A stretch of DNA of 17,454 nt from a virus (IMGVR_UViG_2579778773_000004:1-17454); one strand, 5' to 3'; counted from the first letter of the stretch, positions 1 to 17,454 are shown. A program made the numbers and translations. Notes: generated from the sequence alone by a model not told the origin.

Positions 1-148
1 GTTATTACCCGATCTCGATGGAAGTTATTGAGTGATCTCCTTTCATGAAAATACGCATTAATAAACAGTTTCTCAATTATTAGTCAGCATCATCAGAAGA
101 AACCCCTCTCCAAAGATAATTTTATAAAATAATATAAATGTCCACGCC

Positions 149-210
149 TGGCACGGAGTAGACTGGCTATCTAAGCTAAAGGTCTGCTGTGAGCGAAAAC
201 CGGACATGTA
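149..210. repeat. Junction element copy A (core TGGCACGGAGTAGAC at 149-163, plus a GCGAAAAC box at about 193-200)
   Basis: Read directly: TGGCACGGAGTAGAC...GTGAGCGAAAACCGGACA. Aligns by eye at roughly 70% identity over about 55 bp with copy B at 2794-2866 (TGGCACGGAGCGGAC...GTGCGAAAACAGACA). Lies downstream of the 211-aa cargo gene on the - strand. Confidence 0.6.
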
Positions 211-516
211 CATATCTGTCAAAAAAGCAATTTTTAGCTGCCACTTCCAGTGGATGGCGGTCGGTCAGGAGATAATAGAAACAAAACATAATCATTAAAT
301 GACTGAAAAATGAAAATTGTATAAACATTCATCTTAGATGACAATTTCAAATGCATCTCTATAATTTCCCCTAGTTCAAACCAGACAGAATCTAACCACT
401 GCAAGTAGTTTTAAAATCATAGGAAAATAACGTGCATCAGCAGAAGCATATGGAAAATACACAACACATTTCAAAAATACATACTTTTAAAATTTTCATT
501 GACTGATATTTTTAAT

Positions 517-1152
517 TTATTTTCGTAAAAAAATCGACGCCCTATCCGGGTTTACTTTACATAGATGAGAAAGATATAGCGCCCTTCGATTAAATTTGCC
601 TTCAGTAAGGTCATCAATGTTTTTCCTGAATGGGTACTTAATCCGTGCAGCTATGTCAAAGTCACTAATGCTTGCATGAGCTTTGGTAAGTTTAGCTATC
701 CCATAAGTGCCATAGCCAAAGTAGCAACAGGATATATATGCTATGCAGATATCATCTGCTGTTGTTGCTTTCCTGATAAGAATGGCTAATATTTGCTCTC
801 TTATTTTTCTTCGAACTGTTTTCTCATATCTCTTAGTTATTGTTCTAACAAACTGTTGGTCTATAGTACTTGCGCCTTGATGAATGTTTTTAAATAATCT
901 CAGATATATAGTTCTTAAAATAGCAACTGGATCAACTCCCCTGTGTAATAGTTGCCGATGATCCTCAGCCACTCTTAATATATCAATTAAAGATAAAGAT
1001 ATAGATCTTTCACTTATCGAACTAAGCCTTATATAATCAATACATTTATAATAATCTTCCATAATACTTTTAACCCTGAATTTAAAAACCATTTCTGCCA
1101 ATAGCAAGTATGGCAATGACAGTAAGGTAATCAAAAAGCGCTTCGCTGCCAT
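517..1152 (-). CDS. Hypothetical membrane-anchored protein (cargo gene, 211 aa from the internal start MAAKRFLITLL...); second gene of a two-gene operon
   Basis: ORF track gives 517..1188 (223 aa). I prefer the ATG at 1152 because AGGAG sits 7 nt upstream (minus-strand reading CAGGAGACGTGAA-ATG). N-terminal hydrophobic stretch FLITLLSLPYLLLAEMVF suggests a TM helix or signal anchor. A 200+ codon ORF in very AT-rich DNA is unlikely by chance. No family recognised. Confidence 0.55.
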   Translation of the reverse strand: MAAKRFLITLLSLPYLLLAEMVFKFRVKSIMEDYYKCIDYIRLSSISERSISLSLIDILRVAEDHRQLLHRGVDPVAILRTIYLRLFKNIHQGASTIDQQFVRTITKRYEKTVRRKIREQILAILIRKATTADDICIAYISCCYFGYGTYGIAKLTKAHASISDFDIAARIKYPFRKNIDDLTEGKFNRRALYLSHLCKVNPDRASIFLRK

Positions 1153-1679
1153 TTCACGTCTCCTGATGTATCTGCAGCGGTGGACCAAAATTTGCCATGC
1201 ATAGCATCTGCATTCACCTTTTGGAAATACAGCAAAATGGTATAACTCCTTAACTCACCTTCCATTTTTATATTCAATGAGGCATGATTTTTCCTTAAGT
1301 AATTTCTCTTAATCACCCCTCGAACCTCTCCAATACTTCTATGCTTACCAGTGTATGGTCTTATATTATTATTGTTTTCAACGTCTTTTGTTTTCTCAAT
1401 AAACCCTTCAATATTATTGTTGTCACATATTAAAGTCAGTGTATAAAACGTTTTTAAATTCAAGTAAGGATTATACGCAGATTTTAGTGTTTTACATTCA
1501 ACTTCAAAGACGCCCGAAAAATTTGGTGGCGGTTTAATATATTCTTTGAATATAAAAATCAATACAGCCGCAATAAGAGTAGCAACAGCACCACTTAAGA
1601 TTTGATTTGTGGAAATAAAGGTTAGAGATGGCTCAAGCCATTCCCAAAATATGTTGAAAAAATCAGTAAATTTATTCAT
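1131..1679 (-). CDS. Hypothetical single-TM membrane protein (cargo gene, 182 aa); first gene of a two-gene operon
   Basis: ORF track entry. Hydrophobic segment ILSGAVATLIAAVLIFIF (residues about 27-45). Its 3' end overlaps the start of the downstream gene by 22 nt, suggesting translational coupling. Very AT-rich. RBS is weak (AAAGAAA). No family recognised. Confidence 0.5.
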   Translation of the reverse strand: MNKFTDFFNIFWEWLEPSLTFISTNQILSGAVATLIAAVLIFIFKEYIKPPPNFSGVFEVECKTLKSAYNPYLNLKTFYTLTLICDNNNIEGFIEKTKDVENNNNIRPYTGKHRSIGEVRGVIKRNYLRKNHASLNIKMEGELRSYTILLYFQKVNADAMHGKFWSTAADTSGDVKWQRSAF

Positions 1680-2076
1680 AAATTTCTTTTGATAGTATGT
1701 TTTTTATATGATGTTACATTTTTGAGAAAAAAGCAACTTCGCCGATTAAAAACTATCTCGCTGGAATTTATGGGCATCATGTTATGAATACATTCTTATC
1801 CCATAGGGAATAAAACCCTATCTATAGAATAAAAATCCAAATTTTATCTTAATAAATCAGATAAAAGATACTTATACTACAAAGGTACTTGTGTAAGATC
1901 AAACTTTTAATCCTATAAGTTATAGATTGAAGCAACTGTGACTTATAGTGCGCACACTTAAGAATCTCCGATGACGATGGTAGCAGGAGACAACTTTTGA
2001 CAACTCACTCCTATTACCAACTTACTGACTTGCTCCGCGTTGAGAGATTTATAGTTATGCCAGCACTGTCCGCTTC

Positions 2077-2116
2077 TGGCACATTGCGGAAGGGCTAACG
2101 GCCCGGAGTAAGTGAG
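2077..2116. repeat. Junction element copy D (TGGCACATTGCGGAAGG, with flanking inverted repeat TCCGC/GCGGA)
   Basis: Read directly: GTCCGCTTCTGGCACATTGCGGAAGGGCTAACGGCCCGGAGTAAGTGAG. Shares TGGCAC-N3-GCGGA with copies B and C. TCCGC (2069-2073) pairs with GCGGA (2086-2090). Lies downstream of the 171-aa gene. Confidence 0.45.
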
Positions 2117-2180
2117 TAACGGATGTTTGCAAGCACTCTTACTGCTGACAATGATCGCATCCAAGATAAAATAGGTGGTG

Positions 2181-2696
2181 TCAAGGTACAGGTTCACCAA
2201 TATAAGTGTGTGTGCAGCAACGACATGTCACCTTAACGTCATCTCTTGTGATTGAAAGGTTTACCTGTTGCAGAATTCCATTCTCATCAACAAACAGACC
2301 TGGGTAAAAACTGCTTTCACCAATGCAGACTAAATCCCTTCGCTGATGCTCATGTAGCGCGACCAACCAGAATACCGGCTCGGTGGTATCAAGACGTCCA
2401 CATACTTCGCTGAATATTTCATTCCACGGCTTGCCAATCTCTTTGATCAGAAAATAAAACAACGGTGTGTAGTCTCGGCCACGCTTCTGTCTGCTATGCA
2501 TTGTCTCGCGCTTTACCAGTAGCTCATCTCCGACTTTTTTGCGATTTCGTTCCCACCGATACTCAGCACCCGGATTATTAGAATGGTGCCGCGTCGTCGT
2601 GTTGACGCTGCGATATAGTTTACGGGACTTATTCTGCTGATGAATACGCATAGCTCGATCTCGTACATCCTTTCTTTTGTGGGCCAGTAGCCCCAT
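2181..2696 (-). CDS. Hypothetical highly basic protein (171 aa), cargo gene of unknown function
   Basis: ORF track entry. AAGG lies 8 nt upstream of the ATG at 2696. Local GC (near 47% by eye) is higher than the flanking AT-rich cargo. Arg/Lys/His-rich N-terminal half. No motif recognised; could be a nucleic-acid-binding protein or a decayed gene. Confidence 0.4.
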   Translation of the reverse strand: MGLLAHKRKDVRDRAMRIHQQNKSRKLYRSVNTTTRHHSNNPGAEYRWERNRKKVGDELLVKRETMHSRQKRGRDYTPLFYFLIKEIGKPWNEIFSEVCGRLDTTEPVFWLVALHEHQRRDLVCIGESSFYPGLFVDENGILQQVNLSITRDDVKVTCRCCTHTYIGEPVP

Positions 2697-2793
2697 TCAG
2701 ACCTTGTGTTACTGTATAAAAAATGAACACCCTTAAAGGCTGTATCATTCTGCTCAAATACCATCCTACTGACAACTACCAAAGGTCGGATTC

Positions 2794-2866
2794 TGGCACG
2801 GAGCGGACAATCAAGTAGAACTGAAGGCCCGCTATGTGCGAAAACAGACAGACACAGATTGATCAC
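2794..2866. repeat. Junction element copy B (core TGGCACGGAGCGGAC, plus GCGAAAAC box)
   Basis: Read directly. Begins 17 bp downstream of the stop of the HExxH gene (2883). Homologous by eye to copy A. Contains a weak inverted repeat AGCGG...CCGCT. Confidence 0.6.
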
Positions 2867-2882
2867 AAACATACCTGAACCA

Positions 2883-3812
2883 TCAGGATTTTATATCCTT
2901 GTGTGGCTCTAATCCTTCAGAAAGGACTTTATCAAATGCAGCATATTGCCTTTGTAATTTACTTTCACATTCATACAGACTCTTTAAACTAACATCATCC
3001 ATAGATTGAAAGAGTCTTTTGTTATCAACTAAATAGGAGTATGCATTAAAAATAGAAACATCCATTATATCTTTCAGTTCTTCATCAGATAGTTTAGTCT
3101 TTTTACTTAAATGCTTAATCACATGTGACTGCAATGCATTTGCGCGAACCATGGCGGGAGGATATTTGCTATTCTTCCCTTCCAATTTACATAGAAAATT
3201 AAAGAAAAAAAATATTGATGTTAAAGATAAACTAACAAGTGTTTTCTCTTCTATTTTTTTCTCCGGGGCCTTTTTTATTGTATTTAAGACGACATCTGCA
3301 ACAAAGTATGCTGAGAATACATCTGCATCATACTCCATTAATGTTTTAATCTGATCTTCACTAAAATCTTCATCGACTACATTGTACCCCATTGAATAAA
3401 CTTGGTAATCACCAATCAGGTTTATTTCTTTACTTTTGGCTAATGATAAGTGTCCACGAGCGACATGTCCAAGTTCATGACCGAAAATATGGTGCCAAAT
3501 AAAGACACACCCTAACGCAACTGGAGCTTCCTTTTCTTTCAAGTCAGGGTATTCTCTCATGAAGAATTCTATATTTTCAGAAAGAATGTCAAACGTTATT
3601 GGTATCAACCCACTCAATAAAATAATATGGAAATTATTGTCTTTTTTTTGTGCGTGAGCATTAAGGTTAAAATCGTCCTTAATGTGCAGAGCTATTTTTT
3701 TACCATCCTCTTCAATAGCGGAGTTTATCTCTATCAATCCTTTTTTGAAGGTATCGTAAACAGGCAAGAAAAAACCACTTTCTATTTTCGAAATTTCATC
3801 ACGGGTCATCAT
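2883..3812 (-). CDS. Putative HExxH zinc metallopeptidase (309 aa; motif HIFGHELGHVARGH), possibly ImmA/IrrE-like; standalone cargo gene
   Basis: ORF track entry. Tandem ATG ATG start with strong RBS (minus-strand TTAAAGGTGGAAAT-ATGATG). HELGH is a zincin-type HExxH motif in a hydrophobic context. A 309-codon ORF in very AT-rich DNA is unlikely by chance. The family assignment is from motif recall only. Confidence 0.7.
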   Translation of the reverse strand: MMTRDEISKIESGFFLPVYDTFKKGLIEINSAIEEDGKKIALHIKDDFNLNAHAQKKDNNFHIILLSGLIPITFDILSENIEFFMREYPDLKEKEAPVALGCVFIWHHIFGHELGHVARGHLSLAKSKEINLIGDYQVYSMGYNVVDEDFSEDQIKTLMEYDADVFSAYFVADVVLNTIKKAPEKKIEEKTLVSLSLTSIFFFFNFLCKLEGKNSKYPPAMVRANALQSHVIKHLSKKTKLSDEELKDIMDVSIFNAYSYLVDNKRLFQSMDDVSLKSLYECESKLQRQYAAFDKVLSEGLEPHKDIKS

Positions 3813-3869
3813 ATTTCCACCTTTAACATGAAATCTAATTCTAATTGATAGGTCTACTTAGTTTCGCTC

Positions 3870-3898
3870 ATTGTACTATTTTATTAAAGTGGGTTGAA
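3870..3898 (-). promoter_or_regulatory. Candidate sigma70 promoter for the HExxH gene (-35 TTCAAC at 3893-3898, 17-nt spacer, -10 TACAAT at 3870-3875, minus-strand reading)
   Basis: Read directly from the reverse complement of 3841-3935. An AT-rich UP-like stretch (CTATATAAAAATGTAA) lies immediately upstream. Implied 5' UTR is about 50 nt. Confidence 0.3.
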
Positions 3899-3935
3899 GG
3901 TTACATTTTTATATAGCATGTCTACTGTCCCTTTG

Positions 3936-3981
3936 TGGCACAGAGCGGACTGTCAGATTAGTTTTTACTCTGTGCCATAGA
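3936..3981. repeat. Junction element copy C: perfect 10-bp inverted repeat TGGCACAGAG / CTCTGTGCCA around a 22-nt loop; putative end-of-operon hairpin after G
   Basis: Read directly: TGGCACAGAG-CGGACTGTCAGATTAGTTTTTA-CTCTGTGCCA. Shares the core TGGCAC(R)GAGCGGAC with copies A and B. Lies 30 bp downstream of the G stop. No U-tract follows on either strand, so it is not a canonical intrinsic terminator. Confidence 0.55.
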
Positions 3982-4011: not shown

Positions 4012-4590
4012 TTATTGTGGCATTTCAGGCCATTCTATATCCGGAGCATCTTCCGGCTGAACGCGATTCAGTAGCACACGGTATTTTTTCCAGTGTGTCA
4101 GACTTAACTTTTCTTCCTCGGTAGCCATATCTAAATCGACAGCATCCTGCAGCGTGGCAATAATTTCACCTGCATATGCAATCAGCTCTTTCTTCTGAGA
4201 GTCAGCCGCTCTGACAAGCGCATCACGCTCTGCATTCTCATCATTCACCCACGCATTTCCGTTCCATTTCTGATAATCCCCATCCGGGGAAATGGCTGTC
4301 ACGTCTGGAGGTAATGCGCCAAGTTCAGAAATATAAATGGCTGCTCCTGTTTTTGTTTCATAGACAGTCTTTCCACGATGGTCTTCCACCAGATCCCATT
4401 TCATTTCATCTGCATTGAAAACGGCGGCAAAACCCACCGGAATATCTGGAGGTGCAATGTCTGTACTGTTTGCAGGAAGACCTGTATGCGGCGGAATATA
4501 TGCGTCACTTTCGCCAATAAATTCATTGGTTCCATCAAGTAAATTGAAAACGCGGATAGTTTGTGTCTCTGCACTCATTCTGAAAGTCAT
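4012..4590 (-). CDS. G: Tail fiber assembly protein (chaperone), gpG-like
   Basis: Position immediately after H with a TAATG stop/start overlap. C-terminus ...[10 protein letters not shown] matches the conserved gpG C-terminus as I recall it. The N-terminal part is variable, as expected for the partner of the fiber tip. Start at 4590 is preferred (GAGG upstream); alternative ATG at 4578. Confidence 0.85.
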
Positions 4591-6365
4591 TATGCCAGCC
4601 TCACAATATAGTTATACGCAACGTTTTTTACGGTGTTCTCTGAATTACCTGTGGCACTTACAGTGACGGTATGACTATGCGCGCCAATCGCAATGGAATG
4701 GCTGTGAGCACCAATGCCAACCGTGTGATTATGCTGACCAATGTCGACTGTATGGGCGTGTGCTCCCGCAGAGCTTGACACCTGGTTGGTTCCTGATACC
4801 TGTACGCGTTGTTTACCCCCGATGGAGTCACCACCGTAACGACCACCGACAGTGTGTGTATGCGCTCCCGTATTGTTTGTCGTTTTTGTGCCGTGGTTAA
4901 ACGTGCTGACCGTTTTTGTCCCGTAATCAAACGAACTGGTTGTTTTCGTCCCTAAATCCGTACTGGATGCACTGGCACTGTGGGTATGTGATTTAATTCC
5001 GTCCTGTTCCTGTGATAATACGGCGCGACCACTGGCGGGTTTGCCCTTGATTGTCCAGCCGCGCATATCTGGAATCACCCCTGACGGATAAGCTACTGCA
5101 AGCAGGGGATAGGCTGCTTTATCAAAAGTCTGCCCCTGCATCAGGGCATAGCCTGTAGGTACTGAATCAGAAGGCCACGGGATTGGAGCACCTACCGGAA
5201 AGTTGTTGTACCCGTCATGATGAATCAACTTCCAGCCTTTAAAAACACCTGCGCAAACTGCCGCAAAACCGATTACATCTCCATTAAAATCAATGCCAAT
5301 AACAGTATTGTATCCCTGAGTATTGCTGTGTGCAGAGTTGATGTAGTGCTTCCAGGTGTGTCCTCCAGGCATTCCATTCTTTGCTGAGGAAGCATTAAAA
5401 AAGCCACCACGCGTACGTAAATCAGTAGCAATATCACTTATATTTTCGGCGTACTCATTTAATCCCGCTCCTTTAGGTACTCGCTTGTTTGCATTGTCAT
5501 TAGCAGCTTTCACTGCTTTCGGAGTCGCGGCAAGCGTTTCAGAATCGCTGTTGGTGGCACTACTTAGCTGGACAAGCCCTTTTCGTGCCGTGGTGGCGTC
5601 CTGTGCGGTGTATTTGCCATTAGCAAGGTCATATGCTGTCTTAACCGCCTTTGGCGTTGCTGCGAGCGTCTCAGATTCGCTGTTGGTGGCACTACTTAGC
5701 TGAACAAGACCTTTTCGCCCCGTGCTGGCGTCCTGAGCGGTATATTTTCCGTTAGCAAGGTCATACGCTGCCTTAACCGCCTTCGGCGTTGCGGCCAGCG
5801 TTTCAGATTCACTATTGGTCGCGCTGCTTAACTGAGTAAAACCTTTTGCAGTCAGTGAGGCGTCCGGATGGCGTCGTGACTGTTCGTGCTCTGCAATTTT
5901 GTCATCAACGTAATCCTGCGTCGCCATCACCGTTGTGGTGTCGATGGTCAGATCCACTGAGGCCACACTGCTGACGATAATGACCATGCGGCAGGTCTGC
6001 GAACGTCCTGAGCCTTCGGCAAGGGCAGGCTTATAACTTTCGGCCATGTTCGCCACGGCAATTAACGCACCGGTATCATCGTACAGACCAAGTTCACGCA
6101 TCCAGAAACCGCCCACCTCCGGCGGGATGACCAGCTCTGCGATAATATAATTACTGTGTCGATTGTCCTGACTGATTTTATTCAGGGCATGTCGCCAGAC
6201 CTCATTAACAAGTTTTGTCTGTCCGGCATCCGGCACCGGCAATTGACCGCCACCGTCCCCGACGGCCATCGTGGTAATGTTGACCTTCCTGCCTCCCGGT
6301 GCAGTCGCCGCTGCCAGCTTTGCTGCACCGGCGGTAGTGATAACGGTTTGGAACTTTACGCTCAT
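4590..6365 (-). CDS. H: Tail fiber protein gpH-like (591 aa); P2-like N-terminal region, divergent His-rich C-terminal receptor-binding region
   Basis: N-terminal [40 protein letters not shown]... matches P2 gpH by recall. Internal tandem repeats [20 protein letters not shown] (phage tail fiber repeat). C-terminal GAHxHTV / HSH repeats. Confidence 0.93.
5496..5843. repeat. Tandem repeats of about 132 bp (2.6 copies) inside H, encoding the tail-fiber repeat G(F/L)[42 protein letters not shown]
   Basis: Visible at both protein level (residues about 175-290) and DNA level (three near-identical blocks between about 5490 and 5845). Confidence 0.85.
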
Positions 6366-6375
6366 TATTCCTCAC

Positions 6376-6906
6376 TTATCCTGGGTAAACCGTAATAACA
6401 TCGCCGTCATAAGCCACACCACCGGCAAACAGATAACCGGGGATGTCCTGGGTAATATTCAGACCAATAAGGTGACGACTTGCAGGTTTGGCATCGGCAA
6501 TCAGCCGTTCCATTTCCAGATACATCTCCTCCGTGATGCCGCTTTCCAGTACGCCGATATCAAGCCGGAAGGTGCCGGGCGGGTCGCTGTTTTCCCACCA
6601 CTCCGTCACGTTGATGAGATAGCCGAGCGGCTCCACCACACGGCGAATCGCACCAATAGTGCCCTTATGGCAGTGAATGAAATACGCATCGCGGATAACG
6701 GCGCGTTTTGTCGCTTCCGGCCACTTTTCATCCCAGCGGTCAACCGAAAATGACCACGCCAGCCACGGCAGCAGATTTGCCGGACAGGTGTCCGGGTTCC
6801 ACAGCTCACGAATACTGACCGGCGTTTTTTCAATTTCCGCACAGGCTTTTGCGGCGGCAACTTCAAGCGGTGATGAGCCTGTCGGCAGCAGTCGCGAATC
6901 ATTCAT
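6376..6906 (-). CDS. I: Baseplate protein gpI-like (176 aa)
   Basis: Length and position (between J and H) match P2 gpI. Overlaps the J stop by 8 nt. Confidence 0.9.
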   Translation of the reverse strand: MNDSRLLPTGSSPLEVAAAKACAEIEKTPVSIRELWNPDTCPANLLPWLAWSFSVDRWDEKWPEATKRAVIRDAYFIHCHKGTIGAIRRVVEPLGYLINVTEWWENSDPPGTFRLDIGVLESGITEEMYLEMERLIADAKPASRHLIGLNITQDIPGYLFAGGVAYDGDVITVYPG

Positions 6907-17004: not shown

Positions 17005-17454
17005 TGAGCAAGAAAAAAGGGAAAACACCGCAACCTGCGGCAAAAACAATGACCGCCAGCGCCCCGAAAATGGAGGCATTCACCTTTGGCGAGCCGGTGC
17101 CGGTACTCGACCGCCGTGATATTCTGGATTACGTCGAGTGCATCAGTAACGGCAGATGGTATGAGCCGCCGGTCAGCTTTACCGGTCTGGCGAAAAGCCT
17201 GCGTGCTGCCGTGCATCACAGCTCGCCGATTTACGTTAAACGCAATATTCTGGCTTCAACGTTTATTCCGCATCCGTGGCTTTCTCAGCAGGATTTCAGC
17301 CGCTTTGTGCTGGATTTTCTGGTGTTCGGCAATGCGTTTCTGGAAAAGCGTTACAGCACCACCGGCAAGGTCATCAGACTGGAAACCTCACCGGCAAAAT
17401 ATACCCGCCGTGGCGTGGAGGAGGATGTTTACTGGTGGGTGCCTTCCTTCAACG
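17004..17454 (+). CDS. Q: Portal (capsid vertex) protein gpQ-like, 5' partial (first 150 codons; continues past window end)
   Basis: Open frame from the ATG at 17004 to the window end (MSKKKGKTPQPAAKTMTASAPKMEAFTFGEPVPVLDRRDILDYVE...). Not in the ORF track because no stop lies in the window. The P-then-Q order matches P2. Confidence 0.92.
   Translation, partial: MSKKKGKTPQPAAKTMTASAPKMEAFTFGEPVPVLDRRDILDYVECISNGRWYEPPVSFTGLAKSLRAAVHHSSPIYVKRNILASTFIPHPWLSQQDFSRFVLDFLVFGNAFLEKRYSTTGKVIRLETSPAKYTRRGVEEDVYWWVPSFN

Follow-up and report, generated by a model that had tools for sequence, protein, structure and literature searches.

Integrons are among the described systems closest to the gene array analysed here, which lies downstream of the tail fibre assembly gene G of a P2-like prophage in a 17,454-nucleotide stretch of viral DNA (IMGVR_UViG_2579778773_000004:1-17454; all of it is called the window below). 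The array is punctuated by short repeated elements, here named Box1 and Box2, whose central spacers read TGGCAC and GAGCGA. As in integrons, co-oriented and mostly single-gene cassettes stand between imperfectly palindromic sites, a tyrosine recombinase gene can be found beside a 'simple' site with one good arm, cassettes can carry anti-phage genes, and composite junctions can fold as a long hairpin. The pdif modules of Acinetobacter (XerC/XerD) offer the parallel of discrete modules that pass from replicon to replicon, with short recombinase core sites as their limits. Laboratory recombinase-mediated cassette exchange with heterospecific lox or FRT sites offers that of two incompatible spacers by which a segment is swapped without deletion. 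FimB and FimE resemble the candidate enzyme described below in their length of about 200 amino acids (aa), their catalytic domain with a short N-terminal extension and their inverted repeats of about 9 bp. Repetitive extragenic palindromic (REP) sequences, BIMEs and their RAYT enzymes (REPINs) recall the boxes through short palindromes with conserved arms, variable loops and fixed linkers, through an enzyme gene flanked by its own units, and through an abundance of units in some genomes, here those of Xanthobacteraceae.

The locus itself has a history. In the relevant passage of a review (PMC8987985), Nilsson et al. 2004 are reported to have found the P2 gene fun flanked by inverted repeats enabling site-specific recombination. 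Because of this account, neither junction repeats nor the idea of site-specific exchange at this locus is new. The Z/fun repeats of Nilsson, Karlsson and Haggard-Ljungquist (2004, Mol Biol Evol 21:1) occupy the same gap between G and FI and reportedly occur in enterobacterial chromosomes too. Judged by location and behaviour, which were compared in place of the sequences, Box1 and Box2 are probably those repeats. The box sequences were not found in print in the literature searched. Rousset et al. 2022 (PMC9122126) speculated on cos ends and left the exchange mechanism open, and Moura de Sousa et al. 2026 (PMC13586616) wrote that the recombination processes 'still need to be elucidated'; repeats and a recombinase go unmentioned in both. 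In these two hotspot studies and in the papers citing Nilsson et al., we found no mention of two heterospecific spacers, spacer-confined breakpoints, multi-cassette arrays, use by lambdoid prophages or an embedded recombinase. A literature search for such a cassette system returned classical integrons only.

A preliminary description of the window, made from its sequence, had pointed out four TGGCAC elements in one orientation. A blind repeat search recovered all four in their places as its top and largest family (137-162, 2065-2090, 2782-2807 and 3924-3949; 26 nt each). In the window, the core pattern TGGCACRGAGYRGAC has three exact matches and one partial match against 0.19 expected, and the 24-mer GTCYGCTNNTGGCACNNAGYRGAC has five matches with up to three mismatches against 0.01 expected. 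The 13 kb of late genes in the window hold no match to the 24-mer and no comparable sequence. A computed alignment of the four copies shows similarity well past the 6-bp core, with GTC, TGGCAC, G and GA as invariant columns. The places of the copies had thus been given correctly, and their starts had not, as the left arm GTCYGCT puts the beginning of each element 9-12 nt further upstream.

The four copies had been described as a single kind of element. Comparison of the window with loci of Escherichia coli genomes, viral contigs and species genomes revealed that the element is bipartite, and a second dyad follows the first at 182-205 and, in degenerate form, at 2827-2850. Box1 is a 24-bp dyad, GTCYGCTnn-TGGCAC-nnAGYGGAC, with 9-6-9 spacing and an asymmetric spacer, and Box2 (GTCYGCTnn-GAGCGA-nnAGYRGAC) combines the Box1 arms with another spacer in the same spacing. 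Position counts over 226 Box1 and 201 Box2 sequences give the arms GTCYGCT and AGYRGAC, invariant spacers (TGGCAC and GAGCGA, respectively), and variable positions 8-9 and 16-17. Both boxes have the build of a tyrosine-recombinase core site, namely inverted arms of about 9-13 bp around an asymmetric overlap of 6-8 bp. At internal junctions Box1 is followed by a linker and then by Box2, the linker being 18 nt long in 40 of 52 distinct composites and ending in ..CTGAAG or ..CTAAAG. All boxes are co-oriented in 166 of the 171 loci that hold two or more of them.

In the window (Table 1), junction A (140-205) is a complete Box1-linker-Box2 composite. Junction B has a good Box1, followed by a degenerate linker and Box2 remnant at 2092-~2125, and junction C (2785-2850) is a composite whose Box2 has decayed. 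The GCGAAAAC box, previously assigned to copies A and B, actually occurs in the first and third copies (193 and 2838) as part of Box2. Identity between these two is 62%, ungapped over 66 nt, and not about 70% over roughly 55 bp. Copy D is a lone Box1 that overlaps a backbone hairpin, an inverted repeat of 10 bp with z = -2.9. Comparison with the sequence 3' of G in phage P2, which had been recommended, finds Box1 there inside the same hairpin, directly 3' of G. An analogous CTGTGCCA stands 18 nt past the backbone Box1 in lambdoid prophages (e.g. locus L018). In P2-like and in lambdoid backbones alike, the spacer region recurs in inverted form (CTCTGTGCCA or CTGTGCCA) about 18-26 nt from the terminal Box1 on its backbone side and pairs with TGGCAC, as it does at 810-850 of L004. 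Possible roles of the backbone hairpin include an accessory site, a terminator or protection of the end site.

These features set the boxes apart from the systems that they resemble. Unlike integron sites, the box consensus lacks GTTRRRY/RYYYAAC, breakpoints fall in TGGCAC or GAGCGA and not at G|TT, and the sites are 24-bp double-strand-type 9-6-9 dyads of two heterospecific kinds. They are set in phage and island hotspot platforms instead of an intI-Pc-attI platform, with cargo in either orientation, and the candidate recombinase has about 200 aa, against about 320-340 for IntI, with its gene between two sites at a junction. The arms GTCYGCTnn and nnAGYRGAC are not like the XerC/XerD sites (GGTGCGCATAA / TTATGTTAAAT, 11-6-11). 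Whereas pdif sites form inverted pairs and are served by host Xer, the boxes are direct and have a dedicated small recombinase as their candidate enzyme. As direct repeats, they would also give exchange, not the inversion brought about by FimB/FimE. By contrast with REP/BIME and RAYT, the associated enzyme is a tyrosine recombinase and not an HUH Y1 protein, GTAG is lacking, and the E. coli element is low-copy and confined to accessory junctions.

Next, we consider where homology between unrelated replicons begins and ends. The prophage of a relative, CE0011b, is otherwise identical to the window and continues, past the point where the window meets insertion sequence IS2, into a fourth cassette, a terminal Box2 and FI. 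The 4,849-bp four-cassette array of CE0011b, and hence of the window, matches a chromosomal island of NB4833 with zero mismatches. Identity spans the first GAGCGA base of the terminal Box2 to the last TGGCAC base of the terminal Box1, and outside the two spacers it is 0.26-0.35, that is, random. Similarly, a 1,014-bp segment running from GAGCGA to TGGCAC is 99.9-100% identical between one P2-like phage and three lambdoid prophages, the flanks of which are 22-24% identical. Single cassettes behave in the same manner. Many E. coli genomes carry cassette 2 by itself (2062-2809 of the window, 95.9% identity) among other neighbours, and these matches begin at box B and end at box C. Its peculiar left half-site, GTCGG(A/C)TTC, moves with the cassette, while the sequence after TGGCAC differs. 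At another locus (L002), the unusual left half of copy C, GTCGGCTTC, is joined after TGGCAC to another right half and flank.

To generalise from these cases, we examined the co-segregation of half-sites with flanks in 103 distinct Box1 contexts and 124 distinct Box2 contexts. When two Box1 contexts have only the left flank in common, their left half-sites agree exactly in 80% of cases and their right half-sites in 7% (baseline 11-15%); with only the right flank in common, the values are 8% and 73%. For Box2, a left (backbone) flank shared alone goes with left half-site identity in 92% of pairs and right half-site identity in 9%. Pairs sharing the right flank alone give 3% and 26%, a weaker signal from a small class of 31 pairs. 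As half-sites co-segregate with their own flank, the crossovers must lie inside the 6-bp spacers; they are confined to about 6 bp because polymorphic positions abut the spacer. The half-site test and the two independent block boundaries therefore agree that parentage switches inside the overlap, as expected of strand exchange.

The boxes hold fixed places in the backbones that carry them. In P2-like phages the layout is constant: FI <- 193 nt - Box2 - cargo - (Box1-18nt-Box2 - cargo)n - Box1 - 62 nt - G. Among 23 P2-like viral loci with both G and FI, nearly all keep these distances, 193 nt from Box2 to FI and 62 nt from the G stop to Box1; the exceptions are one locus without recognisable boxes and several without a scoring Box2. 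These loci have one- or two-cassette arrays, and the two-cassette ones carry an internal Box1-18nt-Box2. In phage P2 (NC_001895), a Box1 immediately after G and a Box2 at 17432 together bracket orf30 and Z/fun, with the annotated pF activator-binding site (17555-17583) 100 nt past the Box2. Near-empty hotspots keep Box2 and Box1, 41-53 nt apart. The same boxes serve lambdoid prophages, non-P2 islands and plasmids besides the P2 G-FI gap. Backbone-side flanks fall into classes (the P2 G end, Qin/Rac-type lambdoid, another lambdoid replication module, umuDC-like and gpA-type Rep), and on the variable side sequences diverge right up to the arm. Cargo orientation relative to the boxes varies, P2 Z/fun being opposite to the cargo of the window. 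Per E. coli genome the element has a median of 1 place and never more than 5, found at accessory-gene junctions only, and the composite junction is detectable in 2,455 of 5,426 complete genomes (45%). The trkG gene of the K-12 Rac prophage, examined as a possible boxed cassette, has no boxes. Each copy in the window had been said to lie just 3' of a gene or operon. This holds for the previous module, but as the copies lie between modules, each is equally 5' of the next.

Cumulatively, inverted arms, exchange inside the spacer and strict co-orientation are the signatures that a tyrosine recombinase leaves in conservative site-specific recombination, and we consider it likely that the boxes are sites of such recombination and mark off exchangeable gene cassettes. 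The recombination chemistry, like the identity of the enzyme, we infer from these signatures and from gene position. With 9-bp inverted arms and a 6-bp asymmetric spacer giving the architecture of a core site, Box1 would recombine with Box1 and Box2 with Box2, and Box1 would not recombine with Box2 because the two spacers differ. Having two spacer types, the hotspot would work as a two-site landing pad, Box2...Box1, whose cargo segment runs from GAGCGA to TGGCAC. A double exchange (Box1 x Box1 plus Box2 x Box2) could then swap one cassette or an entire array, in the manner of recombinase-mediated cassette exchange, and a single event with a circular cassette could add a unit, leaving a Box1-linker-Box2 junction between neighbours. 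The near-empty hotspots with both boxes agree with such a landing pad. A recombination scar, with cargo modules added stepwise and each bringing its own copy, had been suggested before. This was essentially right, as the homology of unrelated replicons starts and stops inside boxes and arrays of one, two and four cassettes have the same end sites; it needs sharpening in that there are two different sites, that breakpoints lie in the 6-bp spacers and that the sites extend beyond the P2 G-FI gap.

A candidate enzyme is encoded within arrays of other genomes. In E. coli MSB1_9I, a gene for a 200-aa 'site-specific integrase' lies inside an array. Here, in the direction of the boxes, variable cargo leads to GTCCGCTyy TGGCAC, and a perfect hairpin (CAGGGCTGC-N3-GCAGCCCTG) comes next. 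The recombinase gene follows, encoded on the other strand, then a perfect inverted repeat of 12 bp, then GTCCCTTAT GAGCGA rrAGYGGAC and variable cargo again. The gene thus replaces the 18-nt linker between the Box1 spacer and the Box2 spacer, with canonical outer and degenerate inner half-sites. The same arrangement was found in E. coli, Phytobacter, Providencia and Cycloclasticus, and in WCHEC025943 (L354) the recombinase junction stands within a lambdoid hotspot bounded by a backbone Box2 and Box1. Distinct contexts were counted for the close homologues in viral-contig loci that were fetched by protein alone: the recombinase stop is followed, 28-30 nt on, by GTGCCA plus an outer arm in 11 of 11, and an outer arm plus TCGCTC lies 48-51 nt ahead of the start in 11 of 12, with variable sequence beyond the boxes. 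A perfect 12-bp inverted repeat (ACTCAAATCTCC-N9-GGAGATTTGAGT) just upstream of the gene (L006 9352-9390; also L123, L014, L270 and L351) is conserved across genera and is likely an operator or regulatory hairpin of the recombinase gene.

The domain content of the protein is the PF00589 catalytic domain alone, and its catalytic residues R51, K79, H148, R151, H174 and Y183 (R-K-H-R-H-Y) are invariant down to 52% identity. Homologues are very numerous, being 75-95% identical across Enterobacterales and marine Gammaproteobacteria, and 904 of 5,426 complete E. coli genomes (17%) carry the gene; WP_001305361 of E. coli EcPF5 is one example of the 200-aa protein. A weak NCBIfam match to 'tyrosine-type DNA invertase' (E=8e-6) is below the cut-off, scores with NCBIfam integron and Xer models are far below theirs, and no curated family name or solved relative was found by sequence. 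An AlphaFold model with a pLDDT (predicted local distance difference test) score of 56 was too poor for a fold search and was left unused. From its genomic position, this recombinase of about 200 aa may well be the enzyme acting on the boxes. Its gene sits in the linker position where present and is absent from the window, where the enzyme would act in trans. In Cycloclasticus and relatives (L347-L350), a recombinase homologue and a half-Box1 adjoin arsenic/heavy-metal resistance clusters and a DDE transposase, and the system may also move resistance cargo in marine Gammaproteobacteria.

The exact Box1 pattern is also present in many metagenome-assembled genomes of Xanthobacteraceae and other Alphaproteobacteria, in one betaproteobacterium, and in Pseudomonas and Pseudidiomarina. 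In Alphaproteobacteria, a second palindrome with the same arms and the spacer CGGGGG or TGACCC follows about 18 nt past Box1. Among the matches listed, multi-copy loci are co-oriented in 14 of 14, and genes end, rather than start, at Box1. The density is about 0.5 units per kb in the recovered 8-kb stretches, which were picked for holding a box. Ordinary genes beside such boxes include those for Bug/TctC binding proteins and adenylate cyclases (L220-L339; e.g. L300, L256 and L258). In such genomes, recombinase homologues with 52-56% identity are flanked by boxes of the alphaproteobacterial type. Because these homologues adjoin boxes of their own type, the sequence comparison supports what would be an ancient partnership of enzyme and site. 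Taken together, the locus may represent an integron-like but mechanistically distinct cassette-exchange system, run by junction-encoded tyrosine recombinases of about 200 aa, that moves defence and accessory cassettes among the P2-like phages, lambdoid prophages, islands and plasmids of Enterobacterales, with other-spacer versions expanded in Alphaproteobacteria; we offer this wider picture tentatively.

Several observations weigh against site-specific recombination by this enzyme. The recombinase gene is absent from the window and from the arrays of its two closest relatives. It is found in 17% of E. coli genomes, against the 45% with a composite junction, and it is the half-sites adjoining the gene that are degenerate. 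The arms are nearly invariant, which leaves no covariation signal either way. In Xanthobacteraceae the boxes are abundant beside ordinary chromosomal genes, in the manner of REP sequences, and this would be hazardous if every copy were active.

A formal alternative is that some other function, such as protein binding or structural punctuation, keeps the boxes conserved, and that RecA, Red or illegitimate recombination swaps the cassettes at these short homologies with no dedicated recombinase. Published work prefers homologous or illegitimate recombination or cos-end exchange and names no site (PMC9122126; PMC13586616). The boxes are indeed the sole sequence common to otherwise unrelated flanks, and the window has no recombinase in cis. 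However, identity of 7+6+7 bp split by the polymorphic nn positions predicts that crossovers hit the arms no less often than the spacer, which is not the pattern observed. RecA recombination between 24-bp homologies is very inefficient. As two distinct spacers with strict co-orientation are typical of site-specific systems, and a recombinase gene lies exactly between one spacer and the other, we regard recombination without a dedicated enzyme as unlikely. Less probable again is that the composite is a selfish REP/REPIN or a miniature repeat of the MITE (miniature inverted-repeat transposable element) type, spread by transposition, with which cassette boundaries coincide secondarily. Identical arms at the above density beside ordinary genes in the box-selected loci of Xanthobacteraceae would suit such a repeat, as would a gene flanked by its own palindromes, which recalls RAYT/REP, and the folding of the composite into a long imperfect hairpin. 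It is at odds with the low copy number and accessory-junction placement of the E. coli element, and insertion of a 66-bp unit does not lead one to expect fixed split half-elements (Box2...cargo...Box1) in backbones. The enzyme that accompanies the boxes belongs to the tyrosine recombinases and not to the HUH/Y1 or DDE transposases, and a terminal-inverted-repeat (TIR) transposon model fails because cassette 2 has Box1 on both sides. A specific form of that model, a transposon with 15-bp imperfect TIRs in a palindromic target (GAGCGAnnAGCGGAC against the reverse complement of GTCCGCTnnTGGCAC, 11/13), was rejected, given that Box1 bounds cassette 2 on both sides and that this cassette has its own degenerate Box2.

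The preliminary description had also offered a shared terminator or regulatory element. As RNA, the boxes would be intercistronic hairpins that terminate, stabilise or process cassette transcripts; each can form a stem of 7-9 bp, copy D has its 10-bp hairpin just after G, and one weak terminator-like match overlaps Box1 A. The stems nevertheless lack a U-tract and the sequences after them are not T-rich. Terminator-like sites number 5 against 2.1 +/- 1.6, with one of the five at a box, and thus show no enrichment, nor do promoter-like sites in the window; there is no Rfam match at gathering scores or E<=1. Watson-Crick counts equal the expectation under independence, so that positive evidence for a hairpin requirement is lacking: T4 and A21 are uncoupled and half-site variants are independent. 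Cargo stands in either orientation to the boxes, and spacer-precise mosaic boundaries would be left unexplained, making a role as RNA very improbable. The least credible proposal is that the copies are duplicated promoters, either Ogr/Delta-activated P2 late promoters (TGT-N12-ACA), whose activator site is centred near -55 ahead of a late operon, or sigma-54 promoters, which read TGGCAC-N5-TTGC (-24/-12) and point toward a gene. The minus-strand core does read YGTGCCA-N-GGACA, and TGGCAC is the sigma-54 -24 hexamer. But the dyad spacing is N11 and not N12, the annotated P2 pF activator site differs from Box2 in sequence and position, and TGGCAC-N5 is followed by GGAC or GGAA with no GC-containing -12, the motif being antisense to the cargo. 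Moreover, non-P2 islands, plasmids and alphaproteobacterial chromosomes carry these boxes too. Other candidates were discarded: the P2 gpA nick site as a recombination point has no similarity to the boxes, and the DNA gyrase and XerCD dif consensuses do not fit. The arm-type sites of P2 Int, TGTGGACA (L128 294-321 and 471-497; attP), resemble the box arm AGYGGAC(A) but are direct repeats, and the likeness is probably a coincidence.

Site-specific cassette exchange is open to experiment, as exchange points are resolved to within 6 bp, unrelated phages and islands use one and the same pair of sites, and there is a named enzyme candidate. If correct, it would provide the mechanism that has been missing for the fast turnover of defence systems in phage hotspots, explain why P2 trades cargo with lambdoid phages and with cryptic islands, give a computational rule for delimiting cargo (from GAGCGA to TGGCAC), and supply a compact natural two-site cassette-exchange recombinase for genome engineering.

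The minus strand of the window encodes the late genes of the prophage, with the terminase on the plus strand. G (4012-4590) is followed by H (4590-6365) and then by baseplate, lysis and capsid genes up to the terminase. Positions 58-3926, 3' of G, are AT-rich cargo with 36% G+C against 55.6% in the late genes. At least three cassettes lie downstream of G in the window, and four in CE0011b, the layout of which places the IS2 of the window between cassette 1 and a fourth cassette. The IS2 end interrupts the cassette array and is outside the box system. The 211-aa protein of cassette 1 matches PF00912 (peptidoglycan transglycosylase; E=1.6e-22), and the RefSeq annotation of DNA identical to cassette 1 in other genomes supports the open reading frames of this cassette. 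A family search with the 309-aa protein of cassette 3 gave no match, and a PADLOC search of the four cargo proteins (517-3812, minus strand) gave zero matches to known defence families. Because of their place in a defence hotspot, these four proteins are candidates for new phage-exclusion functions.

Table 1. Boxes, junction parts, cargo and flanking features of the window, with near-empty hotspots of two other loci
Feature	Position	Strand	Description
IS2 end	1..57		100% matches to thousands of E. coli places annotated IS3-like element IS2
Box1 copy A	140..163	+	GTCCACGCC TGGCAC GGAGTAGAC; junction after cassette 1
Linker of composite junction A	164..181	+	18 nt, ..aagctaaag
Box2 copy A	182..205	+	GTCTGCTGT GAGCGA AAACCGGAC; includes GCGAAAAC box
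Cassette 1 cargo	517..1679	-	182-aa predicted membrane protein (1131-1679) and 211-aa transglycosylase-domain protein (517-1152)
Box1 copy B	2068..2091	+	GTCCGCTTC TGGCAC ATTGCGGAA
Cassette 2 cargo	2181..2696	-	171-aa basic protein
Box1 copy C	2785..2808	+	GTCGGATTC TGGCAC GGAGCGGAC
Linker and degenerate Box2 copy C	2809..2850	+	18 nt, ..gaactgaag; Box2 at 2827-2850, GCCCGCTAT GTGCGA AAACAGACA
Cassette 3 cargo	2883..3812	-	309-aa protein with HELGH (HExxH) zinc-protease-like motif
Terminal Box1 copy D	3927..3950	+	GTCCCTTTG TGGCAC AGAGCGGAC; lone Box1, right half is phage backbone
Backbone hairpin	3936..3981		TGGCACAGAG-N26-CTCTGTGCCA, overlapping Box1 D; CTCTGTGCCA at 3972-3981
Tail fibre assembly gene G	4012..4590	-	conserved backbone flank of the hotspot
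Near-empty hotspots	L183 ~6618-6706; L102 ~3761-3861	- (both)	landing pad without cargo

The two relatives of the array differ in their surroundings. In CE0011b, IS2 is positioned between G and cassette 3 instead. The NB4833 island (L342, 2.50-2.53 Mb) is located between hipA and the ydeQ fimbrial genes and starts with two adjacent large tyrosine integrases beside hipBA. It contains a box-bounded pair of genes for a DUF2254 protein and a BCCT transporter, an HTH/186-aa module in two copies and an ABC-three-component defence system.

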